Below, piece after piece: positions 1 to 34,102 of a stretch of DNA of 34,102 bases. Within the stretch, counting starts at the first letter, position 1, and each line of letters begins with the position of its first letter. The translations under genes and the position numbers were made by a program. The DNA is taken from IMG/VR virus record IMGVR_UViG_2778261316_000008. One strand, given 5' to 3'. The notes beneath the pieces were generated by a model. The model made no database searches. It had not been told where the DNA came from and saw nothing but the letters and a program-made list of their open reading frames with translations. This stretch comes from a virus (Duplodnaviria > Heunggongvirae > Uroviricota > Caudoviricetes).

Positions 1-330
1 TCAGTAACCAAACAACGCCCATTTTAGTAGTGCATCTGCATCATTCTTCAAACTTCCAAGGTCTTTTCCTGGTGAAATTGTTGCCGCTACACCAAGCGCA
101 TTAAGTCGAAGCTGTGCCTGATGGAATCGACTCTCTTGCTGTAGGCCCAGAATTTCATTTTTATTCGCGACAGCATAACGCTGAATGGCTGACTTCGATA
201 CGCTGTAACCTTTATCGGCTAACCAGAGCGAGAGCCATTCATAACTGGTGAAGTTTGTGCGCGATAATTCGCTATGAAGCTCGGCACGAACATCCTCTGG
301 CAGTTTATCAATATTGCTTGGTCTGGCCAT
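1..330 (-). CDS. DUF3486-like protein (short paralogue of the gp27-like ORF at 12611-13156)
   Basis: ATG at 330 preceded by AGGAGG; N-terminal ~55 aa (MARxSxIxKLPEDVR...GYxxSKSAIxRY) clearly alignable with the 181-aa ORF at 12611; stop codon at bases 1-3. Confidence 0.6.
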   Translation of the reverse strand: MARPSNIDKLPEDVRAELHSELSRTNFTSYEWLSLWLADKGYSVSKSAIQRYAVANKNEILGLQQESRFHQAQLRLNALGVAATISPGKDLGSLKNDADALLKWALFGY

Positions 331-349
331 CTGTCCTCCTATAAATAGC

Positions 350-739
350 TTAGCTATTTTCCACCTTCTCTGAATCAGAGTCACCATCAAACAGTTTGCC
401 CTGCATCCGATCCAATTCTTCTTTTCTGACCCGCTTCACCACGCTGTAAACCCACTGTAGTGAAACACCGAATTTGCGGGCCAGTTCGTGATGGTTGCGT
501 CCGTCAAACTCCAGGAAGATTTCCCGGTCGCGCTGACTGACCTTCCAGACCATGCCCATCGGAAAATAGACGTTTTGCCCACCCCAGACCTGCATCATGC
601 GGTTCGCGACGGCCTGACCAATCTGGTCGGCAACTGCGGGTTCGATATCAATAATCTCGCGGACGGTCTCAGAGGTATGCTGTGCCAGTTCTACCAACAG
701 TTCCGGCCCTTTACTACGAAACTGATTCAGGTCACTCAT
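350..739 (-). CDS. Mor/C-family transcriptional activator (middle/late gene activator)
   Basis: 129-aa ORF from ATG at 739 (MSDLNQ...); C-terminal region (ELARKFGVSLQWVYSVVKRVR) has the HTH pattern of Mor-family activators; position after GemA-like gene as in Mu. Confidence 0.75.
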   Translation of the reverse strand: MSDLNQFRSKGPELLVELAQHTSETVREIIDIEPAVADQIGQAVANRMMQVWGGQNVYFPMGMVWKVSQRDREIFLEFDGRNHHELARKFGVSLQWVYSVVKRVRKEELDRMQGKLFDGDSDSEKVENS

Positions 740-1164
740 TGCTTCACTCCCGCAGCTCTGCTCTGCCACTTCTTCAGTTTCTCAATCACGCTACTTGCCT
801 GCTCATTGCTGAGCCAGCGTAACGCGCTGATGCCTGTTTCCCGTTTAACCCACAGCGCCAGCGCCTGCTCTGAACTGTCTCGGACGATGCCTGCGGCAGC
901 CATTTCAAGCCATAGCGCACGGATTTTCTTTGACTGCGGATGACTATCCAGCGGTAAGCCGGACCTGGCTTTCCCGGCAGGCTTAATGCGAAAGCCTTTA
1001 TTTTTCATGGATTCCAGCACGCGGTTTAGCTGTGGGGTATCCATCCCTTTGGTTGAGGCTTTGCCGGTCAGCCCCTGTAGCATCTGGCGGTAGGTGTCCT
1101 CATCCATCTGGAGGTCGCTGCGGGCAATATGAATGAGTTGAATAAGACGCTGCTTAGTCATCAT
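736..1164 (-). CDS. GemA-like protein (Mu gp16 family)
   Basis: ATG at 1164 (MMTKQRLIQLIHIARSDL...); motif LIxLIHxA...DDTYR...LxxxTGK resembles Mu GemA/gp16; 4-nt overlap with downstream activator gene. Confidence 0.65.
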   Translation of the reverse strand: MMTKQRLIQLIHIARSDLQMDEDTYRQMLQGLTGKASTKGMDTPQLNRVLESMKNKGFRIKPAGKARSGLPLDSHPQSKKIRALWLEMAAAGIVRDSSEQALALWVKRETGISALRWLSNEQASSVIEKLKKWQSRAAGVKQ

Positions 1165-1369
1165 TGCCACTCCTTTTACCTGCGCCACCGATATAGTCGA
1201 CATATAAAGGAAGCGCAACAGGCCAGCACAGGAACATAACGGCCCAACTGATCCAGTGTCCGGCACCGCTGTAACGTGAGTAAAACCCTGAACGGCGGTG
1301 CAGTTCAGCAGTACACCACCCCACGAGACCATACCAGAACAGGGCACATACAATTGATTCAGCCATCAT
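1154..1369 (-). CDS. small membrane protein (two predicted TM helices)
   Basis: ATGATG start at 1369; hydrophobic segments IVCALFWYGLVGW and WISWAVMFLCWPVALPLYV; 11-nt overlaps with both neighbours suggest translational coupling. Confidence 0.4.
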   Translation of the reverse strand: MMAESIVCALFWYGLVGWCTAELHRRSGFYSRYSGAGHWISWAVMFLCWPVALPLYVDYIGGAGKRSGNDD

Positions 1370-1586
1370 AATGAATACCACCCCAGTTAATATGAATGTT
1401 ACGGGCTGTAGTAACCGGATCGTTATTCCACCATGCACCTGACATGTAATTTTTAACCTGTTCTCGTCCAGCGATAACGCCAATTTGAATGCCGGGCCTT
1501 ACGTTCTTAAAAAAGGCGCGTGCAAAAAGATATTTAGCAGCTGTACGGCAAGGGTTCGGTGCTTTCTTCTTACGCGATAACATCAT
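1359..1586 (-). CDS. hypothetical small basic protein
   Basis: 75-aa ORF with ATG at 1586 overlapping stop of upstream gene; no recognisable domain. Confidence 0.35.
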   Translation of the reverse strand: MMLSRKKKAPNPCRTAAKYLFARAFFKNVRPGIQIGVIAGREQVKNYMSGAWWNNDPVTTARNIHINWGGIHYDG

Positions 1587-2272
1587 CTTTCAGCCCTCAG
1601 TTTATGCTGCTCCTGCCCGCCAACGGGCTGATGCAGGCGGACGTTTTCCCCTTCTCTGTAACCGATGTGGCGGGACATGTCTGCGTCACGTGATTTCCCG
1701 GCCCCACGGCCCGTAGTTGTGCCTGAGTCAGGGTATTTTTGTTCAAGCCAGAGGCTTGCCAGCTCCCGTTCTTCGCGGGACATAGCAAATAAATGAACCT
1801 CGCTGCGCACGGCCAGAACCCAGCCTTCGGCAAATTTGTCACCACGGCTGGTCTTGGTCGTGTTTTTGATTCTTTTATTCTGCTGTCGAATATAGTTTTT
1901 ACGGGCCATGATTAATTGTCTGGCCAGTACCTCCCATGTATATGAGGCCAGTTCAACCCGGTCTTTATTACCGTAAAAGCCAACGCTGGGTTTAAAGCCG
2001 GAGTGAATAATAGACTTAACGCCAAATGCCACCTGGATAATGTCCAGCAGACCCAGCATGTAACGCGGCGGATTAACGCTACCTGCAGCCCAGTAGTTAC
2101 TGACGCTTTCATCAATATCACTGAGTGCGAGGTCAGCCTGGGTGATGTTATAGGCTTGCATCAGTTTCTGGGCGCGTTGCAGTGCCAGTGCCGCTTCATG
2201 GGGGTTATCGGATTTAGCCAGCGCAAGTAGCTTTTTTAACTTCTCCAGCAGCTTTTCATTATTCTGCGGCAT
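1583..2272 (-). CDS. DUF2786-like protein
   Basis: N-terminus KLLEKLKKLLALAKSDNPHEAALALQRAQKLM matches the pattern I associate with DUF2786 proteins; ATG at 2272. Confidence 0.55.
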   Translation of the reverse strand: MPQNNEKLLEKLKKLLALAKSDNPHEAALALQRAQKLMQAYNITQADLALSDIDESVSNYWAAGSVNPPRYMLGLLDIIQVAFGVKSIIHSGFKPSVGFYGNKDRVELASYTWEVLARQLIMARKNYIRQQNKRIKNTTKTSRGDKFAEGWVLAVRSEVHLFAMSREERELASLWLEQKYPDSGTTTGRGAGKSRDADMSRHIGYREGENVRLHQPVGGQEQHKLRAER

Positions 2273-2555
2273 AAGTCACCCCCAGGCGTTCGGCAAGGCG
2301 TTCCAGCTTTTTCTGCTTATGAAAATCAATCATCAGGCCCATTCCGTTGAGGCGGAACTGTTCAATCATGATTTCAACGTCAGCCAGTTCGCCAGCCAGA
2401 TCAACTTCACTTCCCAGTCCGTTCATGTTGCGGGCGGCAGCAGCGGCCAGCTCGGCGGCTTCTTCCATCAGCTTCAGCGCCTGTGCTTCAGGGCCAAAGG
2501 TTTTCAGGGCCAGATTGTATATAGTGGAGCGGTTATATAATTTCATGCCTTTCAT
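2259..2555 (-). CDS. hypothetical protein, possible MazG-like all-alpha NTP pyrophosphohydrolase
   Basis: ATG at 2555 (MKGMKLYN...), ATGA overlap with upstream Zn-ribbon gene; pattern EEAAELAAA...ELADVEIMIEQF...KQKKLERL resembles MazG-type motifs (recall, not searched). Confidence 0.45.
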   Translation of the reverse strand: MKGMKLYNRSTIYNLALKTFGPEAQALKLMEEAAELAAAAARNMNGLGSEVDLAGELADVEIMIEQFRLNGMGLMIDFHKQKKLERLAERLGVTYAAE

Positions 2556-2740
2556 TTTTTTGCCTCGCAGGGGATGAACTCCATGGCCGGAACTTCGGTG
2601 TAGTAATGCTGGCTGCAGTGAGGGCATACCAGCGTGATGAGGACGGCTGGCACATGGTATTTACCAGAGGTAATGACGCTGGCGTCGCTGAACTTCAGGG
2701 TGGTGATACCTTTCTTACAGTTGGAACATTTGATGGACAT
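2552..2740 (-). CDS. small zinc-ribbon protein
   Basis: 62 aa with CxxC (CSNC) and CxxC (CPHC) pairs spaced about 35 residues apart. Confidence 0.5.
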   Translation of the reverse strand: MSIKCSNCKKGITTLKFSDASVITSGKYHVPAVLITLVCPHCSQHYYTEVPAMEFIPCEAKK

Positions 2741-2818
2741 GATTTATTCCTCAATGCTGTTTTCGGCGTGCAGAAGCCCACGGAGCTGACGCCGAAATAA
2801 AAGGAAATTGAATTAAAA

Positions 2819-3430
2819 TTAAATGGCAGCGATATCTAACGGAATATTAATTAGCTTCCCGTGTTTATCTTTCTCCCGGAAATTAATATAGGTTTTGGAC
2901 ATTGCCACCTGCAGTGATTCCGATATGGCCTCCATTGCCCGGTTCCAGCGCTCGTCCTGAATCTTGACGCGGCGCAGGGAAAGAATACGTCCGGTATTAA
3001 GCTGGCCCTCTTTGTCCACCTGAAAAGCATCGCTGATGATGGCCCGCAGGTTGGCGTTCGCGCCTTCCGACCACTCGGTGACGCACTCGTCTATCAGGTC
3101 TTTGGCAATCTGCAGCTCTGGCCCGAAGGTCAGGGTTTCCTGCACGCGGATGGTGATCTGCTGAGCACCGTCGAAGCTGCTGAAGGTCACGTTGCCTTTG
3201 GCACCGCCACGCGTTCTGCCGTACTTCTCGGCCACAAGGTCAAGCCAGGCATAGCACTCGTCAAAGGCACGACGCTTGAAGTCACTGAGTTCATCGCGTT
3301 TAACCTTCGCGGCGACAACCTGTTCTTTAACGAAAGAGTCCATCGCAAGGTCATAGTCAGACACCTGGTCAACCGGCACCAGACGCCCCTTGCGGTCTTT
3401 CATGTAGTTTTCTTTATTTACTTCGCTCAT
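2819..3430 (-). CDS. DUF3164-like protein (common in Mu-like early regions)
   Basis: 203-aa ORF; sequence pattern recalled from Mu-like prophage early-region proteins; assignment from memory. Confidence 0.55.
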   Translation of the reverse strand: MSEVNKENYMKDRKGRLVPVDQVSDYDLAMDSFVKEQVVAAKVKRDELSDFKRRAFDECYAWLDLVAEKYGRTRGGAKGNVTFSSFDGAQQITIRVQETLTFGPELQIAKDLIDECVTEWSEGANANLRAIISDAFQVDKEGQLNTGRILSLRRVKIQDERWNRAMEAISESLQVAMSKTYINFREKDKHGKLINIPLDIAAI

Positions 3431-3447
3431 CTCTGTTCACCTTATGG

Positions 3448-3717
3448 TTAATGTAACGACTCTGACCAGGTAATACGGCAGCCATGCAACTCAAAGACAC
3501 CCTGACGGAAGCGCCCTGAGCCGTCATGGCCAACATGGGTATAACTCGCTTTGCCCTGCTCCAGCAGGCGGGCACAGTGCCCGTTGCGGGCGATACGGAT
3601 AACCGGCTTACTGCCAGCAATCATGACGCTCTGCACGGTAGTGTTCATGGCGTTGAGCGCCATAATGGCGGACTGCACCTTGTTCATCTGCTGGTTGATA
3701 TCGGCGATGGATTTCAT
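3448..3717 (-). CDS. hypothetical protein
   Basis: 89-aa ORF, ATG at 3717 preceded by AAGGAG, immediately downstream of the ATPase stop. Confidence 0.5.
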   Translation of the reverse strand: MKSIADINQQMNKVQSAIMALNAMNTTVQSVMIAGSKPVIRIARNGHCARLLEQGKASYTHVGHDGSGRFRQGVFELHGCRITWSESLH

Positions 3718-3719
3718 GA

Positions 3720-4886
3720 TTAAACTCCTTTGACGACGTCGGCGTTGACCTGCGGGACCCCGATTTCAGCAGCCAGATTCATGGCGGCTATCACCAGGTT
3801 ACTGACGGCCAGCGGATACAGCAGGCTGACCATGCTTTTACGGCTACTACCCAGATTGCTCAGACGGGCGCGGATGGCTTCCACTGCGCTGGCGTCCATG
3901 ATGTCGGCCAGCTGCTTACCGGCACGTTGCAGTTTGAACGTCAGAAACTCTTCGAGGCTGTTGTCCAGCGGCAGCAGTTCAACCACCTCGCAGCGCTGGA
4001 CGACCTCACGGACTTCCATGTTGCGTTCGGACAGTTTGTCCGCCAGTTCAGGCTGGCCAATCAGCACGATGGACAGCAGTTTTTTGAAGCCGGACTCCAG
4101 TTCGAAGAAGCGTTTAAGGTGCTTCAGCGTCGGAATGGGAAGGCTGTGGGCCTCCTCAATCACCAGAACGTGGCTGAAACCCGCCTGACTGCTGTCCTTC
4201 AGGACTCGGTGCAACTGGCGGAAGCGGGCGTCCTGGCTGCGCTTGATACTCTCCAGCGGCGCGATGGTGCTGATGATGGCCTCGGCGATAGCTGCCGCCT
4301 TCAGGGTTTTGCCCTTCACGTCGTTGTCTTCCATGGCGATGATGTATGGCTCGATTACAATCACCGGCGCGTTCTCGCGGTTGACGCGTTCAATCAGGTC
4401 GCGGCGCAGCGTGGATTTACCCGCACCGGACTCGCCGATAACCGCCAGAAAGCCACCATGGCGGGCGGTCTGGAACAGCGCCTCACGCACGTAGCGGATA
4501 TCCGGCGTGGTGAACACATCGTCCGCGCCCTGCATGGCTTCATCGGCGAACGGATCACGGAAAAGGCCAAACGCTTTTTTGGTTGCTGGAAATAACACCT
4601 GCTTTTTGAGTAACATGTTCTCTTCCTCACTGAGGTTGGTTTTATCGGTAGTACCCGCTGTACGGGGCGTGACAGCGCCCTGTGCAGCATCAAAACTTTT
4701 CGCTGTATCAATCCCCTTACTTTCCAGATACAACGCCAGACGCTGGCGTACCTCTTCGGGGCTGGTGCGTGGCCACTCGTTATGGTTCACAATCTGGGCC
4801 AGCGTGGCCTCGGAAACGGCGACGGCTCTTGCCACCACCGCCTGCGGGATGCGGGCCTCTTTCAGTTGTTGCTTCAGTACCAGCAT
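3720..4886 (-). CDS. AAA+ transposition ATPase (MuB/TniB/ExeA-like)
   Basis: Walker A GESGAGKST, Walker B-like hhhVIEEAH; N-terminal HTH-like region; directly downstream of DDE transposase; RBS GGAGGAAGG. Confidence 0.8.
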   Translation of the reverse strand: MLVLKQQLKEARIPQAVVARAVAVSEATLAQIVNHNEWPRTSPEEVRQRLALYLESKGIDTAKSFDAAQGAVTPRTAGTTDKTNLSEEENMLLKKQVLFPATKKAFGLFRDPFADEAMQGADDVFTTPDIRYVREALFQTARHGGFLAVIGESGAGKSTLRRDLIERVNRENAPVIVIEPYIIAMEDNDVKGKTLKAAAIAEAIISTIAPLESIKRSQDARFRQLHRVLKDSSQAGFSHVLVIEEAHSLPIPTLKHLKRFFELESGFKKLLSIVLIGQPELADKLSERNMEVREVVQRCEVVELLPLDNSLEEFLTFKLQRAGKQLADIMDASAVEAIRARLSNLGSSRKSMVSLLYPLAVSNLVIAAMNLAAEIGVPQVNADVVKGV

Positions 4887-4896
4887 GCCTTCCTCC

Positions 4897-6666
4897 TCAG
4901 TTACCGTTAACGATGCTGATAACGCTGTTGCGGGCCGGAGTGGTCAGGGTAACCATCACCTCATCCAGCGCGGCTTCAGGTACGCCATCCGGGTACTGCG
5001 CCGTTAACTGGCGGTAATGTTCCGGCGTCCAGATATGGCCGTTAGCGCCAAACTTCTCGCGCAGGGCTTTCGCCGCCTCCACATGGGTCAGCGGACGCTG
5101 CTCAATACGCGGCCCGCGCACGTCTGAAGCCTGACCGCGCTTCGGCATATAGGCCGGAAGCGTGGTGTCGTCGATATGTTTGTACGGGTCAAGTCGCCCG
5201 CCGAACGGCAGCGCCTTCGCCTTGCGTGCAGCAGCTGCATCGGTGGCGTTATCGGTGCCCGTAACCAGCTCTTCGATTTCTTTTGCCGCCGTCTGCGCCG
5301 GGGTCTCCGGCAGGGCTTTGTAGTTTTCGCCAAATACCGCCGCGCTTTCGGCAAAGCCGAACTCGTTCTTTCTGACCTCCTCGACCAGGAAGAACGTCTC
5401 GTGACCGTCCTCACCGGTCAGCACCACCTGCGCCACATCGCTGCGCCACGGGTTACGGGTAATCATCAGTTTTTCGCCGACCAGTACGCCCGGTACCGTC
5501 GAAACGTCAAACTCATTGCCCCGGAACGAGACGCGCAGTTTTGGTGTGACCTTACGGAGTTCCGGTGCGGCCACCGCCAGTTCGCGGCAAACCTCAACGG
5601 ATGGCGCTTTTTTCAGCTGGTCAGCAGTAATCTTCAGCCAGATATCCGTGCGGGTTTTACCGTGGCGGCTGTGGACCGCCGTGGCGTTAAAGTGGCTGCG
5701 CCATTTCACCGCCAGTGCGTTCAGTTCGTCCAGGCTATGAACCGGCTGGAATTTGAGACCCGGCTCCAGTTTACGTTCGATAATGTCACGGGCCTTTTCC
5801 ACCTGCCCGGTGGCGCGGGCGTTATGCGGCTTGTGCGCTATCAGATTGATGCCCAGCGAGCGGCACATGTTTTTCGTCATGCCAGCGGTGTTCGCCGAAC
5901 CGGGATCAAGGTAGAGTATTTTCGGCACGCCGTGCAGCACGTCCGCGCCGCCGCGCTCCTGCATGGCGTTGATAAGCACAGAACAGAGGTTCTCACCAGA
6001 TTCCGCACCCATCACGTACTCAACGTAAATCCAGCCGCTGGTATGGTCGGTAATCTCGTAACTCCACACGCGGTCACTGGCGATGCGGGCGATGTTGGCA
6101 GGCTTGTTCTTGTAGAACTTCGAGCTGTCCATCACCTGCAACCCTTTATGGCCGTTGCTCAGGTAGTAAAGCGTACAAAGTGAGGCATCAATCTCCCAGA
6201 CGTGATTGGGATGCAGGCTGGCCATCTCGGACGACGGGGCCGGTGCGTCAAGCTGTTCCGGGTGCAGACCATAGTTCCGCAGGGCGCGGCTGATGGTGTC
6301 CTCGGACAGCGGGAAAAACTCGCCTGTGGCCTCGTCCGTTCTGCCAGCAGTGATAAAGCCGTTTGACCGCAGGGTCTCCACCGCATCCGCGATGGAATAC
6401 AGGCGCTTACCGTTCTTACGGGTGGCCTCGCGCAGCGTGGCAGATATCAGCGCGGCTTCGTCGCGGCTCAGGGCACTGCGCCCGGCATCGGCGCGTTTTT
6501 TACGTTTGTCAGTCACTGATACCTCCTTCAGCTTGCGCAGCAGGGTGGCGCGGGAAATGCCCAGTTCGGCGCAGGCGGCATCATATATCGCACCACGCTT
6601 ACCATGCCCCGCGTCACGTGCCGCGCGGGCAACATAAACCAGTCGTTCAGTCAGGGCGGCACTCAT
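4897..6666 (-). CDS. DDE transposase (Mu A-like / rve integrase core)
   Basis: 589 aa; N-terminal HTH, integrase-core-like region (HPNHVWEIDAS...LYLDPGSANTA...) and C-terminal Mu-transposase-like region; RBS AGGAGG before ATG at 6666. Confidence 0.85.
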   Translation of the reverse strand: MSAALTERLVYVARAARDAGHGKRGAIYDAACAELGISRATLLRKLKEVSVTDKRKKRADAGRSALSRDEAALISATLREATRKNGKRLYSIADAVETLRSNGFITAGRTDEATGEFFPLSEDTISRALRNYGLHPEQLDAPAPSSEMASLHPNHVWEIDASLCTLYYLSNGHKGLQVMDSSKFYKNKPANIARIASDRVWSYEITDHTSGWIYVEYVMGAESGENLCSVLINAMQERGGADVLHGVPKILYLDPGSANTAGMTKNMCRSLGINLIAHKPHNARATGQVEKARDIIERKLEPGLKFQPVHSLDELNALAVKWRSHFNATAVHSRHGKTRTDIWLKITADQLKKAPSVEVCRELAVAAPELRKVTPKLRVSFRGNEFDVSTVPGVLVGEKLMITRNPWRSDVAQVVLTGEDGHETFFLVEEVRKNEFGFAESAAVFGENYKALPETPAQTAAKEIEELVTGTDNATDAAAARKAKALPFGGRLDPYKHIDDTTLPAYMPKRGQASDVRGPRIEQRPLTHVEAAKALREKFGANGHIWTPEHYRQLTAQYPDGVPEAALDEVMVTLTTPARNSVISIVNGN

Positions 6667-6669
6667 GGG

Positions 6670-7578
6670 TTATGCCTCCTGCCCGTTAATCTCTGGCGTC
6701 GGGTCAGTCAGCCATGAAGGGGCGGCGTTGCCTGTCGGCTCGTCCGGCAGGTCAAATGTGGAGCGCAGGCTACGCGCGGTGCTTTCCAACTGGCAGACCA
6801 GACCGGCCATAAAGTCTCTGGGGGTATCAATCATATTTTCAGCACAGTATGCGCACAGGGTCTCAAAGGCGCTGGACAGTCGAACGGCGATGGCAGATTC
6901 CGCCTCAACCGCTAACGCTGTAACTTCCGCACGCAGCTTCTTCACCTCTTCGTCAGGCTTGGGCGGCTGGATACGGGATTTCTTCTCCAGTTTTGTGGAG
7001 AGCGAGTCGATTTTTTCGTTTTTGTCGGCAAGCACGCGCTGTTGTGCTGCGTTGGTTTCACGCGCTTCGCGTAGGGCCGCTTTCAGTTCGCGGCTTGTCA
7101 TGCGATCAATATCATCGAGGCTCATACCAGCAATCGTGCCGCCATCGGCTAATTCGACGAGGTCTTCGTCATCTTCCGTCATCAACTCAAACAGCTTTGT
7201 TTTACCCAAAAGCGCAAGCGCTTGCGCTTTTGGTTCAAGCTTGGGAGACAAATATTTGAGGGATGCTTGCATCATCACCTGCGCGGTACGTTTGGATAGG
7301 GACAACTGAGACTCAACGATGTCGATGAAGTCACCATGTGGTTCATTTTCTTTGAGAATTACCAGTCGTTTACCCGCCTCCAGCATGGCTTCAGCACTCT
7401 GAGCCATATAAAAACGTGTTTCATGGACAATACGATCACGTTCATACGGCAGGCCATCACCAAACTGCTGCATGATTTCGAGGCGATGTTCGGACATAGC
7501 ATTAAGACTGACACTGAGACCATCGGTCAGCGGTGCATCTTCCACTAGTTCAACTGGTTGTGATTTTGTGCGTCCCAT
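6670..7578 (-). CDS. hypothetical coiled-coil protein
   Basis: 302-aa ORF between the wHTH gene and the transposase; charged/coiled-coil central region; no confident family. Confidence 0.55.
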   Translation of the reverse strand: MGRTKSQPVELVEDAPLTDGLSVSLNAMSEHRLEIMQQFGDGLPYERDRIVHETRFYMAQSAEAMLEAGKRLVILKENEPHGDFIDIVESQLSLSKRTAQVMMQASLKYLSPKLEPKAQALALLGKTKLFELMTEDDEDLVELADGGTIAGMSLDDIDRMTSRELKAALREARETNAAQQRVLADKNEKIDSLSTKLEKKSRIQPPKPDEEVKKLRAEVTALAVEAESAIAVRLSSAFETLCAYCAENMIDTPRDFMAGLVCQLESTARSLRSTFDLPDEPTGNAAPSWLTDPTPEINGQEA

Positions 7579-7587
7579 TTCAACTCC

Positions 7588-7893
7588 TTAGCGACTACCA
7601 GCCATAACACGCTGGTTAATTTCATTGATACGATCCTGCGCCCGCGCCATTTCGGTACTGTGCGCCATGGCGATTTGTAAGAGCTGGACTCCTGGGGCAA
7701 AACGCCCGTTATCCAGTTTCAGGGCCAGTCCTTCTTCGATAAGGGTATTGAGCGCCCGATTGATATTCGCCGGGGACTCGCCCAGAGCTGACGCCAGCTC
7801 GCCGTTAGAAACACCGTTCAGAGCGTGACCGCGTAAAGCCTTAAGGACACGCAAAATACGGGTACCTGAGCTTGATGTATTTGGTTTACTCAT
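7588..7893 (-). CDS. small winged-HTH DNA-binding protein (IclR-N-terminal-like)
   Basis: 101 aa; RILRVLKAL...VSNGELASALGESPANINRALNTLIEEGL resembles the IclR-type HTH. Confidence 0.5.
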   Translation of the reverse strand: MSKPNTSSSGTRILRVLKALRGHALNGVSNGELASALGESPANINRALNTLIEEGLALKLDNGRFAPGVQLLQIAMAHSTEMARAQDRINEINQRVMAGSR

Positions 7894-8114
7894 GACGCCT
7901 CCTTGAGGATGCCGGGGGTAACTTCTTTGCCTATTGCGACCGAAAGGTCTCGCAAAATCCGATAAGTCAAACGACCGCGTGGAAGTTCGCTTTTGCCTGC
8001 CCAGCGGCTGACAGCCTGGGTGACTGTTCGTGGCTCATAGCCCGCGTTAAGCGCGAACTGGCGCAAGCTACTGCCTCTTTCAACCAGCCGTGCCCGAACT
8101 TGTTGTTTGTTCAT
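7890..8114 (-). CDS. Ner-like DNA-binding protein (putative early/lytic regulator)
   Basis: 74 aa from ATG at 8114 (alternative GTG at 8120); LRQFALNAGYEPRTVTQAVSRW resembles Ner/Nlp family; first gene of the leftward arm, divergent from the repressor. Confidence 0.5.
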   Translation of the reverse strand: MNKQQVRARLVERGSSLRQFALNAGYEPRTVTQAVSRWAGKSELPRGRLTYRILRDLSVAIGKEVTPGILKEAS

Positions 8115-8202
8115 ATGCACCGTGTTCCTGTTGGGTTATGATGTACTCTATTGGGTCTATTGTACGCACCCGAACGGGTATGTCAAATTGAGATATGTTC
8201 AA
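8115..8202. promoter_or_regulatory. divergent promoter/operator region between Ner-like gene and repressor
   Basis: 88-bp gap between divergent start codons; two copies of CT(R)TTGGGT(Y)TA at 8129-8140 and 8149-8160 spaced 20 bp apart. Confidence 0.5.
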
Positions 8203-8613
8203 ATGAGTATAAAAGAGAGATTGCGCGAAGCGATGGATGCTAAGAGTCTGACAATTAAGGCATTGTCAGACTTGTCAAAAATTCCATATCGCTCACTTCA
8301 AAACTATCTGCGTGGAGAGAGAGAACCTAATGCAGAGGCTCTTGTTGCGCTAAGCACCCATTTGAACATATCAATAGATTGGCTACTTACTGGTAAAGGG
8401 GAAGCTGTTGGGGTAGAGAAAGCACAGCCAGCTAATCAGGAGCAGCATTTCAACCAGTCTGATCTGAAGTTATTGGAGCTGCTCAACCAACTGGAGCCAG
8501 AGGTGCGAAAAGAGTTGCTGCGAGGCGCTGAGGAAAAACAGCGAATGATTGATATGGAAAAACAGCTTAAGGAGCTGTCCGCAGCGTTCGAAAGATTAAA
8601 AAATACGGGTTAA
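8203..8613 (+). CDS. XRE-family HTH repressor (putative lysogeny repressor)
   Basis: ATG at 8203 (MSIKERLREAMD...); N-terminal Cro/C1-type HTH, C-terminal coiled coil; divergent from Ner-like gene; AT-rich. Confidence 0.7.
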   Translation: MSIKERLREAMDAKSLTIKALSDLSKIPYRSLQNYLRGEREPNAEALVALSTHLNISIDWLLTGKGEAVGVEKAQPANQEQHFNQSDLKLLELLNQLEPEVRKELLRGAEEKQRMIDMEKQLKELSAAFERLKNTG

Positions 8614-8648
8614 TCTGTTCCTATTAAGAACATTAGAGGTATAAGGAC

Positions 8649-9182
8649 ATGACTATGCGCAAATTATTTTTACCGTTGATATTTGTTTTATCTGGGTGTG
8701 GAGATAATACCGATCCTGCTGATACGTCCACCACAGCTAAGGAGCACGCGGTTTTTAGCGTTGAAACAGATAATCCGGTTGTAAATCGCGAATTACCGTT
8801 TATTCGCCAACAACTCCCCGGCCTGGATAAGTACGCGGACAGTTTTGAAAAAGTCGAAGTATCCGAGGATAGCGAACGTCCGGTGACAACGGTGCAGTTT
8901 CATATTAAAGACGAAAATAATATTCCAAGTGACTACATAGCCTCTGGTCATAATTGTTATTTGTTCATATCAAATAATGCCCACGAAGTGAAAATATCTA
9001 AATCAGCATGTCAGGCTGTTTTTTTCGATAAAACGGATGTTCCTGGTGGAGACCTGACCGTGAAACTTGATAAGGAAAAAGTTCCTATGACAGATGATGG
9101 TAAGACCCCGCGAGCAGGTTGTTTGAAAGCTTATTCACCAGAGCCAGATAATGATTATTGGACTTGTCCAAGGCAGGATTAA
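8649..9182 (+). CDS. lipoprotein (moron candidate)
   Basis: Signal peptide MRKLFLPLIFVLSGC with lipobox LSGC, Gly at +2; four further Cys; markedly AT-rich relative to late genes; 36 bp downstream of repressor with no intervening hairpin. Confidence 0.7.
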   Translation: MTMRKLFLPLIFVLSGCGDNTDPADTSTTAKEHAVFSVETDNPVVNRELPFIRQQLPGLDKYADSFEKVEVSEDSERPVTTVQFHIKDENNIPSDYIASGHNCYLFISNNAHEVKISKSACQAVFFDKTDVPGGDLTVKLDKEKVPMTDDGKTPRAGCLKAYSPEPDNDYWTCPRQD

Positions 9183-9189
9183 ATGTTTA

Positions 9190-9212
9190 GGTGGTGCTGC
9201 AGATGCACCACC
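9190..9212. terminator. GC-rich hairpin between convergent lipoprotein and methyltransferase genes
   Basis: GGTGGTGC-TGCAGAT-GCACCACC (8-bp stem, 7-nt loop) followed by ACCTTT; lies between two convergent stop codons. Confidence 0.45.
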
Positions 9213-9229
9213 ACCTTTAACTACCTCTT

Positions 9230-10000
9230 TCAAAAATTACAAATTACCAGCTCTTTCTTCGGGCTGGGTTTGCCTGTTACCTTAAGGTTGTAGCTGATAT
9301 CAACCGACTGCATGTTCAGACCGTTGAATACCTGCCGCATTTCCGGGATATCGTTCACTGATATAATCATCTTCCCTTTGATCCTTCGCGCTAAATCTGC
9401 CATGTGATCATAGTTTTCCAGCCCGAACTCCACACCATAGCCTTCCGTTCCCCAGTACGGTGGGTCACAGTAGAACAGCGTATGCGGGCGATCATATCGC
9501 TCTATGCACTGGTGCCAGTCCAGATGCTCTATCAGCGTTCTCGACAGGCGCAGGTGTGCCATCGACAGTTCTTCCTCAATACGCAGCAAATTGAAGCGCG
9601 GCGCACTGGTTGTAGAGGTACCGAATGTGTGATCGGCGACCTTGCCGCCAAATGCCTGTTTCTGCAGGTAGTAGAACCGGGCCGCCCGCTGAATGTCGGT
9701 GAGCGTTTCTTCCGGCGTATCCTGCAACCATTTGTAAATCTGACGGCTGACCAGCGCCCATTTGAACTGGCGAATAAATTCTTCCAGATGATGCTTGACC
9801 ACCCGATAGAGGTTCACCAGTTCCCCGTTGATATCGTTAATGACTTCGGTCTTGCTGGGAGTCTTTAGGAAATAGAGCGCAGCTGCCCCGCAGAACGGCT
9901 CCACATAGCAGGTATGGGCCGGAAACAATGGTAAAATATGCTTCGCCAGACGACGTTTACCGCCAATCCATGGGACGATGGGTAAAGATTGTTCTTTCAT
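9230..10000 (-). CDS. Dam-like N6-adenine DNA methyltransferase (D12 class)
   Basis: DPPY motif (LFYCDPPYWG), SAM-binding-like EPFCGAAALYF; ATG at 10000 (alternative TTG at 10024). Confidence 0.8.
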   Translation of the reverse strand: MKEQSLPIVPWIGGKRRLAKHILPLFPAHTCYVEPFCGAAALYFLKTPSKTEVINDINGELVNLYRVVKHHLEEFIRQFKWALVSRQIYKWLQDTPEETLTDIQRAARFYYLQKQAFGGKVADHTFGTSTTSAPRFNLLRIEEELSMAHLRLSRTLIEHLDWHQCIERYDRPHTLFYCDPPYWGTEGYGVEFGLENYDHMADLARRIKGKMIISVNDIPEMRQVFNGLNMQSVDISYNLKVTGKPSPKKELVICNF

Positions 10001-10247
10001 TATCCGTAAGCCTTTTGCAATCAATGAAAATATGGCAGGCTAGTCTGGTCTCGCGAGACTGACTGAACCCTGGTCGGCTCACAGTGCATACCTGTGGGTT
10101 GATGACCAGCCTGGTGTTACCGCACCGGGCTGGTCGTTCTTTCAAAGCCATCATGCGGTTCACGTCTGCATCCTCACTATTAACGCTGTTTAAAATCCCT
10201 TTCCCCGACCATTTGTGATGCTGTCTCCACTACACAAGGAGACGCTC

Positions 10248-10598
10248 ATGAAAAACCTGAAAAAATTCATTCCCCCTGTTAAAAAGCCACGTCTCAGCGG
10301 CTGGCTGCTGACCGCTGTGCTGCTGCTCGGCACCATCGGTCTGGTATCGCCCCAGCAGCTGCCGGTGGTTGTCTACAAGCTATCACTCATCACGCTGGCG
10401 GCAGTATTGGGCTACTGGCTTGACCGTTCGCTTTTCCCCAAAGCCCGTCCCGGTCAGTACCTGAAGCATGATGACAGGCTGATGGCTGATGGTCGCTTCC
10501 CTGTCCAGACTGGCCTTCACCTGGTCTTTTCTGCTGCGCTAATCCGCCGTGCGCTGATTGTTGCTGCAGTCTGTCTGGCCGTAGCGATGGGGCTTTAA
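10248..10598 (+). CDS. holin-like membrane protein
   Basis: ATG at 10248 with AAGGAGA RBS; three hydrophobic helices; immediately upstream of and overlapping the endolysin gene. Confidence 0.5.
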   Translation: MKNLKKFIPPVKKPRLSGWLLTAVLLLGTIGLVSPQQLPVVVYKLSLITLAAVLGYWLDRSLFPKARPGQYLKHDDRLMADGRFPVQTGLHLVFSAALIRRALIVAAVCLAVAMGL

Positions 10599-32208: not shown

Positions 32209-32380
32209 TCCGAAAATGTTAACTGAGGTTATTCCTGGATTTCATGACACCACTGATGCAATTGAATTGCCGGATGACAACTGGTTTTTCACAACAACTG
32301 AAATACCTGAAGGGAAAATACTCGCCGCAAATGAACGCGGCGAGCCCGTTCTGATTGATATTACTGTCCCGGAGGAGTAG
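32195..32380 (+). CDS. small ORF downstream of S (possible short or truncated tail fibre assembly protein)
   Basis: 61 aa from ATG 32195 with GGAGGG RBS, 14-nt overlap with S; no clear Tfa C-terminal domain. Confidence 0.35.
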   Translation: MRLFNPKMLTEVIPGFHDTTDAIELPDDNWFFTTTEIPEGKILAANERGEPVLIDITVPEE

Positions 32381-32957
32381 GCCAAATAATAACCGGTGCG
32401 CTGGCGGTGTCAACGCCCTCCAGCGCATCCAGATAATCAAGCCAGGCATTATATTGTTCTTTTTCTGCGTCCTTCAGGCGACCCATTGCTGCTTTACCAG
32501 GCCATTGCTTACCATTCATAAAGTCATTGGCCTGGCTAATCAGCGCCTGTAGTTTTGTTGCCGCCACAGAAATATCATATGCGCGCTGAGCTTCGGGATC
32601 GGCAACCCATTTATTACCATCCCATTTATCAAACTTTGTAGTTGGTGCTTCAAAAGTAAAGCCTTCACGCAACGGTCCAATATATTCGATAGTCACCGGC
32701 TTCCCGTTACTGGTGGTGTATGCTGTTTCTCCACGATGGTCTTCTTTAAGCACCCACTCAGATCCAGAAAAAATAAATACCTTCCCTCCTGCTTCGGCCC
32801 CTGGTTCTATCGCCGTAGAGCATCCGGGCATACTGACACCGATGTTAATAAACTCGTCAGACCATCCCATATATTCAGAAGTCACAGCGTCGTAGTAATA
32901 ACAGCGGATTTCACCCGGTTCTGTTGCCAGTCCGTTTACATCGAAAACAGGTTTCAT
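32361..32957 (-). CDS. tail fibre assembly protein (Tfa/U'-like)
   Basis: 198 aa; EDHRGETAY...GPLREGFT...KWDGNKWVADPEA matches conserved Tfa region. Confidence 0.75.
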   Translation of the reverse strand: MKPVFDVNGLATEPGEIRCYYYDAVTSEYMGWSDEFINIGVSMPGCSTAIEPGAEAGGKVFIFSGSEWVLKEDHRGETAYTTSNGKPVTIEYIGPLREGFTFEAPTTKFDKWDGNKWVADPEAQRAYDISVAATKLQALISQANDFMNGKQWPGKAAMGRLKDAEKEQYNAWLDYLDALEGVDTASAPVIIWPTPPGQ

Positions 32958-33472
32958 TATTTAGCCCTTACAAGAAAGTTGAATGCAATATTTCTTGGGC
33001 GGCTTTCCGTGGATGTTCTGGCAACCCTCGATAAATCAAAATTGAATGTAGAAGTTGATACGGTTCCGCCTGGTGCCGGGGGGGCCAGATTGCCCTGAAC
33101 AACGCTGCGAGAAAATACCCCCAACGCATCTGTATTTACCCCTGTATAAAGATCAACGAGATAACCAGTAACATTCTGAATGGCGTCTCCCTGCGGTGAA
33201 AGCAGGGTTCGCCCATTATCTATCCCACGTCCATCATCCCAGACACGCAGAAACTCTCCTCGCAGATCTGGCAATTTCAGGCCCGGCCAAACAAGGGCCA
33301 ATTTTGGGTAAGTGGTAGGGGAAAATGTTGAGTCGTTAAACTTAAGGAACACCATGTCGGCCCATTCCGGCATCACGGTATTTGGCATGGCAGAAGACGG
33401 CCAAAAAAATGGAACTCCTATCGGTGGTGCACCTGCTCCTAAACCAAGGTTTTTGGAAAAGCAGTTACACAT
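32957..33472 (-). CDS. alternative tail fibre C-terminal segment (S'v)
   Basis: Begins ...FSKNLGLG at the right gix-like site (same KNLGLG as in S); C-terminus ...TESRPRNIAFNFLVRAK matches P2 H / Mu S-type fibre tips. Confidence 0.7.
   Translation of the reverse strand: MCNCFSKNLGLGAGAPPIGVPFFWPSSAMPNTVMPEWADMVFLKFNDSTFSPTTYPKLALVWPGLKLPDLRGEFLRVWDDGRGIDNGRTLLSPQGDAIQNVTGYLVDLYTGVNTDALGVFSRSVVQGNLAPPAPGGTVSTSTFNFDLSRVARTSTESRPRNIAFNFLVRAK
33439..33456. repeat. hix/gix-like recombination site (right inverted repeat)
   Basis: CTAAACCAAGGTTTTTGG; core AAACCAAGGTTTTTG is identical to the core of hixL as I recall it (TTCTTGAAAACCAAGGTTTTTGATAA). Confidence 0.7.
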
Positions 33473-33520
33473 AGAGAAATCTGCAAAAATCCTCCCACTA
33501 TGATGTGAAGGAGGAAATTG

Positions 33521-34102
33521 ATGGCCGTTATTGGTTATATCCGCGTATCAACAATCGACCAGAACAGCGATTTGCAGCGTAATGCACTCACAAGCGCAAA
33601 CTGTGACCGCATTTTTGAAGACCGTATGAGTGGAAAAGTTGCCAGTCGCCCTGGTCTTAAAGGCGCTTTAAAGTGCATTAATAGCGGAGACACCCTGGTA
33701 GTGTGGAAACTGGACAGGCTGGGACGTAGCGTTAAGAACCTGATTGCACTCATATCAGAGTTACATGAACGTGGTGCCCACTTCCGCTCTTTAACAGACA
33801 GTATTGATACCAGCACTGCCATGGGGCGCTTCTTTTTCCATGTAATGTCGGCATTGGCGGAGATGGAGCGCGAGCTAATTGTCGAACGGACACTGGCCGG
33901 GCTGGCAGCAGCCAGAGCACAGGGACGCGTAGGTGGAAGGCCCAACGCATTAAAAACCCATGAGCGAGAGCAGATTGGGCGGCTATTGACGAAGGGGCAC
34001 ACCCGCCAGCAGCTGGCAATTATCTACGGTGTAGGGTTATCGACGCTTTACCGATACTTTCCGGTGGATGGTCATAGGAAGGATAACGCAGCAGGAATGT
34101 AA
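33521..34102 (+). CDS. gin: Gin/Hin/Pin-family serine DNA invertase
   Basis: 193 aa; GYIRVSTIDQN with catalytic Ser, VWKLDRLGRS, C-terminal HTH (GRPNALKTHEREQIGRLL...LSTLYRY); GGAGGA RBS; stop is the last codon of the window. Confidence 0.9.
   Translation: MAVIGYIRVSTIDQNSDLQRNALTSANCDRIFEDRMSGKVASRPGLKGALKCINSGDTLVVWKLDRLGRSVKNLIALISELHERGAHFRSLTDSIDTSTAMGRFFFHVMSALAEMERELIVERTLAGLAAARAQGRVGGRPNALKTHEREQIGRLLTKGHTRQQLAIIYGVGLSTLYRYFPVDGHRKDNAAGM

Follow-up and report, generated by a model that had tools for sequence, protein, structure and literature searches.

The seven genes between B and gemA

The window analysed here, meaning the whole 34,102-nt stretch of DNA in the IMG/VR virus record IMGVR_UViG_2778261316_000008 (Caudoviricetes), carries a cluster of seven small genes that we number g1 to g7 from the transposition ATPase gene (B) towards gemA. 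All seven open reading frames (ORFs) that the initial annotation had placed at 1154-3717 are present on the minus strand, flanked by genes for a MuB-type ATPase and for GemA (Table 1). The layout and protein similarities of the window are those of the Burkholderia phage BcepMu type, with early genes on the minus strand and late genes on the plus strand. The early genes, running from ~7,900 to 1, comprise a helix-turn-helix (HTH) regulator, a DUF3102 protein, a DDE transposase (A), the MuB-type ATPase, the seven genes, GemA, Mor and a Gp27-like gene, while the plus strand carries repressor, lysis and morphogenesis genes at ~8,100-33,500. The element is common and has already been sequenced. Over the 2.7-kb region, prophages of 23 complete E. 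coli genomes match it at 97-98% identity, and Klebsiella phage KP12 and Escherichia phage Phi06_2974 B at 96-97%, and near protein homologues of the region occur in Salmonella, Citrobacter, Yersinia, Klebsiella and Serratia.

Table 1. Features of the early region, with positions in the window, best family matches and selection ratios (nonsynonymous to synonymous substitution rates, dN/dS; pI, isoelectric point; aa, amino acids).
Feature	Position	Strand	Description	Matches	dN/dS
A	4897-6666	minus	DDE transposase
B	3720-4886	minus	MuB-type transposition ATPase, upstream boundary	AAA_22 E 3e-20; phrog_296 'DNA transposition protein' E 2.5e-89
g1	3448-3717	minus	89 aa, basic (pI 9.9), PGAP 'HI_1482 family'	phrog_2041 E 3e-33	0.11
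g2	2819-3430	minus	203 aa, DUF3164	PF11363 E 7e-80; 267.6 bits (cut-off 23.7); 193/194 profile positions
Hairpin	2747-2806	minus	conserved hairpin in the 78-nt g2-g3 spacer; inner stem-loop ~2761-2797, 29-nt core 2765-2793
g3	2552-2740	minus	62 aa, CxxC...CxxC zinc ribbon	phrog_3401 E 5e-32	0.10
g4	2259-2555	minus	98 aa, predicted MazG-like all-alpha NTP pyrophosphohydrolase	phrog_2245 'nucleoside triphosphate pyrophosphohydrolase' E 7e-31	0.12
g5	1583-2272	minus	229 aa, basic (pI 9.7), N-terminal DUF2786 helical hairpin and DUF7168 core
g6	1359-1586	minus	75 aa, very basic (pI 10.5)	phrog_3681 E 1e-46	0.15
g7	1154-1369	minus	71 aa, putative small membrane protein	phrog_6436 E 1e-13	0.16
GemA	736-1164	minus	downstream boundary	PF06252 E 1.6e-40
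Mor	350-739	minus	follows GemA	PF08765 E 1.3e-42

Evaluating the gene structure of the cluster, we found that all seven genes start with ATG, that a Shine-Dalgarno-like sequence precedes most of them (less clearly for g4 and g7), and that the Prokaryotic Genome Annotation Pipeline (PGAP) calls the identical seven coding sequences in a 97.6% identical prophage of E. coli AF22. Median dN/dS (Nei-Gojobori, against orthologues in related loci) ranged from 0.075 to 0.16 across the seven, next to 0.067, 0.11 and 0.073 for the flanking core genes B, gemA and mor, respectively, and these low ratios identify the seven as real genes under purifying selection. The genes had been described as all translationally coupled, which fits the five junctions that overlap by 4-14 nt and does not extend to the gaps between B and g1 (2 nt), g1 and g2 (17 nt) and g2 and g3 (78 nt). 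Between 600 and 4200, the minus strand showed neither a sigma-70-like promoter nor an intrinsic terminator, which together with the five overlapping junctions is consistent with a single early operon, such that the seven genes would be transcribed together with the transposase genes A and B. An Rfam scan of 1-10500 returned no match.

The family guesses made from the sequence proved right for g2 (DUF3164), g3 (CxxC...CxxC), g4 (MazG-like), g5 (DUF2786) and g6 (a basic protein of 75 aa). The positional equivalence drawn with the semi-essential (SE) region of Mu likewise agrees with the location of the cluster between B and gemA/mor in one early operon. Taken together, the region is probably the 'semi-essential' early-operon segment of a BcepMu-type transposable (Mu-like) prophage of Enterobacterales, with DUF3164 filling the slot of Gam.

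Alternation of DUF3164 and Gam

Gam itself is not encoded here, as tblastn of Gam against the window gave no match. For a census of the slot between g1 and g3, we fetched 78 viral contigs encoding a g1 relative, 77 of which held the complete slot. Its content was DUF3164 in 37 loci and Gam in the other 40, with no locus holding both and none holding neither, and the Gam of these 40 loci is a clear homologue of Mu Gam (54-64% identical). Aligned with Gam-type relatives, the window loses DNA homology close to the g1 end (3461-3476) and regains it immediately beyond the DUF3164 stop (2802-2807); because these breakpoints lie at gene ends, the exchanged unit is the gene itself. The only two candidates for an intact phage with neither gene, both from the set of loci anchored on B, were rejected, one being a contig end (L265) and the other a deleted remnant (L303). 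In that remnant (L303, 8152-9044), B leads directly into a g3-like zinc ribbon, after which come a truncated GemA (81 aa) and Mor, without g1, Gam or DUF3164, and the whole adjoins host genes including ferritin.

The same exchange was seen in other phages. In the Pseudomonas Casadabanvirus pair Ab30 and JBD30, flanks of ~97% identity enclose DUF3164 (ORF13) in the former and, in exactly its place, Gam (gp13) plus a 68-aa ORF in the latter, and the B3-like phages carry DUF3164 in H71 and Gam in H72 at equivalent positions inside a larger non-homologous block. A sister enterobacterial lineage (L304-L315), with B ~82% identical, has Gam in 3 loci and DUF3164 in 7. A further, possible case is offered by Rhodobacter phages, with DUF3164 in RC1 and Gam in RcapMu. 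In a wider comparison of 80 species with one DUF3164 locus each (±10 kb), a Gam hidden Markov model (HMM) matched in 0 of 80 at E ≤1e-3, and a DUF3164 HMM matched in 0 of 80 Gam loci.

DUF3164 is a stand-alone domain of ~200 aa, with 1,437 clusters at 50% identity spread over Proteobacteria, Desulfobacterota, Spirochaetes and Bacteroidetes, and no fusions were seen in that the longest of the 150 best representatives carry PF11363 only. GemA lies beside it in 66 of the 80 species loci. Roseophages with DUF3164 were noted by their authors as being without Gam, and the DUF3164 protein was found by mass spectrometry (2 peptides) in virion preparations of the roseophages vB_ThpS-P1 and vB_PeaS-P1 (PMC5488378). 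If it is truly packaged, an action on incoming DNA ends at injection becomes possible, as with the Mu N protein. DUF3164 is mentioned in 4 papers, and those consulted give no function for it. In one close relative (L008, 6295-6558), a strongly acidic 87-aa ORF without Pfam or PHROG match stands between g1 and DUF3164, and its composition is reminiscent of DNA-mimic anti-restriction proteins.

The 3' edge of the slot is marked by a conserved hairpin in the g2-g3 spacer, with a predicted folding energy of -20.4 kcal/mol (z = -2.65) and an outer stem in which a U-rich stretch is predicted to pair with the g3 Shine-Dalgarno sequence. Exact copies of its 29-nt core were present in 57 of the fetched loci, in every case directly downstream of DUF3164 or Gam, and the window holds one, with 0 expected by chance. 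The core is kept even where g3 is only 31% identical (L084), and between clades a U-A pair of the stem is replaced by C-G, a double change. The hairpin coincides with the point at which homology resumes after the cassette swap, and it could protect the mRNA 3' end, occlude translation of g3 or act as a recombination junction.

Seeing one gene so regularly in place of the other, we tentatively propose, with confidence a little short of even, that DUF3164 may be a structurally novel, non-homologous functional analogue of Gam, acting in DNA-end protection or RecBCD antagonism. DUF3164 would then do Gam's job of keeping the ends of linear infecting DNA or of transposition intermediates from the host exonuclease (RecBCD), whether by binding DNA ends or by blocking the nuclease.

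Several observations weigh against this proposal. Comparing DUF3164 with Gam, hhalign gave 0.3% probability, the Gam HMM matched DUF3164 ORFs only at E 0.15 or worse, and no fold similarity to Gam/Ku was detected, a negative that is weakened by the moderate quality of the DUF3164 model (predicted local distance difference test, pLDDT, 77; predicted template modelling score, pTM, 0.49). With no shared sequence or fold detectable, position and mutual exclusion carry the whole of the analogy. The 37/40 split amounts to a handful of independent exchanges, because the loci are phylogenetically clustered. Moreover, the DUF3164-bearing locus L084 also encodes a 161-aa zinc-ribbon protein (8080-8565) matching phrog_1518 'host nuclease inhibitor' (E 4e-17), so that there may be nuclease countermeasures besides DUF3164.

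The main rival to the Gam-analogue proposal is that DUF3164 is an accessory of transposition or replication (e.g., in target capture or transpososome remodelling), unrelated to Gam, and that a recombination hot spot holds either gene as optional cargo. In keeping with such a role, DUF3164 is found after pairs of DDE transposase and ATPase as far afield as prophages of Bacteroidetes (PMC7761591) and co-occurs with HU in 22 of the 80 species loci; the missing similarity to Gam/Ku and the position of the hairpin exactly at the 3' cassette boundary, where it could be a recombination junction, point the same way. Optional cargo, however, predicts loci with both genes and loci with neither, and no intact locus showed either state, while the exchange recurs in at least four phage lineages. 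On balance we consider the accessory role unlikely.

Should DUF3164 instead prove to be a Gam analogue, it would represent a second, unrecognised class of end-protecting or anti-RecBCD phage protein, one used by a large share of transposable phages. Acting by a new fold, it would offer a new tool beside Mu Gam, which already serves in base editors and as a label for double-strand breaks. It would also make clearer how transposable phages without Gam withstand host exonucleases. The recurrent either/or of Gam and DUF3164 also gives a large domain-of-unknown-function family a concrete and cheaply testable hypothesis.

A diverged Kil homologue and the other accessory genes

Upstream of the slot, g1 starts 2 nt past the B stop, and in Mu it is kil that likewise follows B. 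Pairwise BLASTP of g1 against Mu proteins gave no match. At the level of families, g1 weakly matches the Kil family phrog_6381 (E 0.005), which Mu Kil matches at E 1e-9; the g1 family itself, phrog_2041, is matched (E 0.008) by BcepMu gp07, whose gene likewise follows B. Aligning families built from the fetched loci, hhalign placed the g1 family with the Mu Kil family at 94.6-96.1% probability (E 6.5e-8 to 3e-9) over ~70 of the 74 Mu Kil residues, and g1 with BcepMu gp07 at 86%. Mu Kil, a host-killing protein, is small and basic like g1, and a C-terminal motif, L-x-G-C-x-I-x-W, is common to g1 (LHGCRITW) and Mu Kil (LNGCQIIW). By these profile comparisons, g1 is a distant homologue of Mu Kil. 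In Mu, the host killing that follows infection by a B-defective (replication-defective) phage is due to the SE region, which includes kil, and deletion of that region restores host viability (PMC3325207). As the counterpart of Mu kil, g1 would have a host-directed toxic role similar to that of Kil. Both of the genes that the initial annotation could not recognise are thus accounted for: Gam is indeed absent, with its slot filled by DUF3164, whereas Kil is present in diverged form.

The reading of g4 as a MazG-like enzyme draws on its PHROG family, on the PGAP name (nucleoside triphosphate pyrophosphohydrolase) and on its acidic metal-binding motifs, EEAAEL (31-36) and ELADVE (56-61), which are conserved across the family, with E31, E61 and E65 invariant in the family alignment. 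Speaking against it, the Pfam PRA-PH match reaches 18.7 bits, below the cut-off of 21.3, and there is no PDB match. Nine relatives lack g4; one of these nine (L022) has a PF04447 dATP/dGTP pyrophosphohydrolase instead (7387-7878), and BcepMu gp06 is another pyrophosphatase of a different PHROG in the same region. Because non-orthologous pyrophosphohydrolases replace g4 in relatives, nucleotide pyrophosphohydrolase activity seems to be favoured in this region. We interpret g4 as an active-looking enzyme of MazG type that probably trims the nucleotide pool or an alarmone early in lytic growth. No g4 relatives were detected among sequenced phages outside this group.

Judged by these sequence families, the cluster is an ordinary accessory early region in which every gene belongs to an existing phage (PHROG) family. 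Among relatives, g4, g5 and g6 are gained or lost, g7 alleles diverge down to 39% identity and extra cassettes are inserted; far from being a fixed set, the seven genes are a mosaic of exchangeable cassettes. The cluster had been singled out as the likeliest place for undescribed host-directed functions; as a mosaic it is a plausible home for such functions, whereas its sequences are all known from annotated prophages and existing PHROG families. The biochemical functions of all seven are, in this account, ones that we infer. PDB sequence and profile searches with the seven proteins and with alignments of g2, g4 and g5 yielded no match better than E ~0.03, NCBIfam holds no family for any of the seven, and when g2-g7 were compared by hhalign with the full set of Mu SE proteins and with BcepMu gp03, gp04 and gp06, only g3 against Mu gp6 (75%) stood out.

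One could also view the cluster as mainly an anti-defence or host-takeover island, holding several undescribed counter-defence proteins against restriction, abortive infection and nucleotide signalling. Near-identical prophages differ here by the gain, loss and replacement of cassettes, the alleles of g7 lie far apart, relatives have insertions coding for small acidic or membrane proteins at this place, and Gam-like end protection would be a counter-nuclease function in itself. There is also the precedent of Atd1, a phage MazG-like enzyme reported to blunt TIR-based defence via (p)ppGpp degradation (bioRxiv 10.1101/2022.06.09.495361). Set against this, PADLOC models gave 0 matches to the seven at E ≤0.01 (these are defence models only, and no dedicated anti-defence library was searched), and no characterised anti-defence relative appeared for any of them in Pfam, NCBIfam, PHROGs or PDB. 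Across phyla, DUF3164 and g1 accompany the transposition module as conserved partners, a pattern more in keeping with a core role in replication or the lifecycle than with a strain-specific arms race, and dN/dS of the seven is as low as that of core genes. Given the lack of detectable g4 relatives among sequenced phages outside the group, g4 would equate with Atd1 only by analogy. Apart from the Atd1 precedent the counter-defence idea is unsupported, and we regard the island as rather unlikely, if less so than the accessory role for DUF3164. Outside the cluster, an orphan D12-class (Dam-like) N6-adenine DNA methyltransferase lies beside the immunity region (9230-10024, minus strand; PF02086, E 1e-27), and it is a more conventional counter-restriction candidate than anything among the seven genes.

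Turning to the remaining genes, g3 keeps its two cysteine pairs (C5-x2-C8 and C39-x2-C42) in relatives down to 31% identity and is present beside either DUF3164 or Gam. Its Pfam zinc-ribbon matches all fall below threshold, and the hhalign match to the Mu gp6 family (E 2.5e-5) covers 38 columns and is possibly cysteine-driven, so a relationship between g3 and Mu gp6 is put forward only as a possible one.

For g5, the two domains were detected well above threshold, with PF10979 (DUF2786) at 50.4 bits (cut-off 23.9) over residues 7-45 and PF23771 (DUF7168) at 86.1 bits (cut-off 25.5) over residues 47-187. An assignment of g5 as a KH-domain protein was rejected, the KH-like core signal being too weak and the expected KH fold with its GXXG loop not being found. 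As a basic protein, g5 is perhaps nucleic-acid-binding. Two distant DUF2786/DUF7168 homologues (P0194 and P0196) also carry an SprT-like metalloprotease domain (PF10263), and such fusions may hint at a DNA-associated role of the g5 family. In the literature, DUF2786 came up in 5 papers and DUF7168 in none.

The family of g6 comprises only 42 clusters in 5.8 billion proteins, of which the named ones all come from Enterobacterales or an unclassified phage, carry the label 'hypothetical' and show no Pfam domain; on that distribution, g6 is an orphan family confined to Enterobacterales. Many relatives lack it, and it matches nothing in the PDB. In one relative (L071, ~8,700-9,950), a ~1.26-kb insertion interrupts g6, with a B-to-gemA distance of 4293 nt versus 3032 nt.

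The last gene, g7, had been described as a 72-aa protein with two transmembrane segments. It does have two hydrophobic segments (Kyte-Doolittle 19-residue means peaking at ~1.45-1.5 near residues 1-20 and 37-60), and its length is 71 aa. Its alleles are 39-100% identical in prophages whose gemA is at least 75% identical.

That g3, g6 and g7 are annotation noise or decaying remnants, as their shortness (62-75 aa), their want of a Pfam family and the loss of g6 in many relatives might suggest, is highly improbable given their dN/dS of 0.10-0.16 over many orthologue pairs with dS 0.4-1.0, their strong PHROG matches (E 1e-13 to 1e-46), the conserved CxxC pairs of g3, starts that overlap neighbours in the operon and their calling by PGAP.

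Two further observations concern the wider element. In the AF22 genome (locus L001, NZ_OZ547223.1, 2463-2762), the Mu-like prophage adjoins a lambdoid 'minor tail protein L' gene that is truncated, apparently because the transposable phage has inserted into the tail module of another prophage. At the far end of the window (32361-34102), a Gin-like serine invertase (Resolvase and HTH_7 domains; 33518-34102, plus strand) lies beside oppositely oriented tail-fibre assembly genes (32361-33472, minus strand) in low-GC sequence, an arrangement that looks like an invertible host-range switch of the Mu G-segment type.

Comparison with known systems

Compared with the SE region of Mu (kil, gp6-gp9, gam, gp11-gp15, then gemA/mor), the cluster occupies the same position after B and before gemA/mor in the same early operon. 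Further points of resemblance are a Kil-family gene that immediately follows B, a possible gp6-like zinc ribbon and a dispensable-looking, mosaic character. It differs in that Mu homologues exist for just one or two of the seven and in that Gam is missing, while Mu in turn is without DUF3164, a MazG-like enzyme, a DUF2786/DUF7168 protein, g6 or g7.

A further likeness is to gp07-gp03 of BcepMu (NC_005882) and to its enterobacterial relatives (SalMu and others), which share the layout: gp07 is related to g1, gp05 is the DUF3164 protein (44% identical), gp06 is a pyrophosphatase, and BcepMu GemA and Mor are 47% and 53% identical to those of the window. In contrast, BcepMu has HU (gp04) and gp03 where the window has the zinc ribbon, the DUF2786/DUF7168 protein, g6 and g7, and its pyrophosphatase precedes DUF3164, an order that differs from that of the window.

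Like the phage MazG-like enzymes (Atd1 of Pectobacterium phage PcCB7V; PF04447), g4 is small, predicted to be all-alpha and equipped with motifs of the EExxE...ExxD type; unlike them, it stays below Pfam thresholds and lacks a PDB sequence match.

Finally, Mu Gam (PF07352), a Ku-like DNA-end-binding 'host nuclease inhibitor', and DUF3164 share slot and operon and are of broadly similar length (~174 versus 203 aa). DUF3164 is somewhat the more acidic of the two (median pI 5.6 versus 6.8) and showed no detectable sequence, profile or fold similarity to Gam, and in at least four phage lineages it stands as a strict alternative to it.

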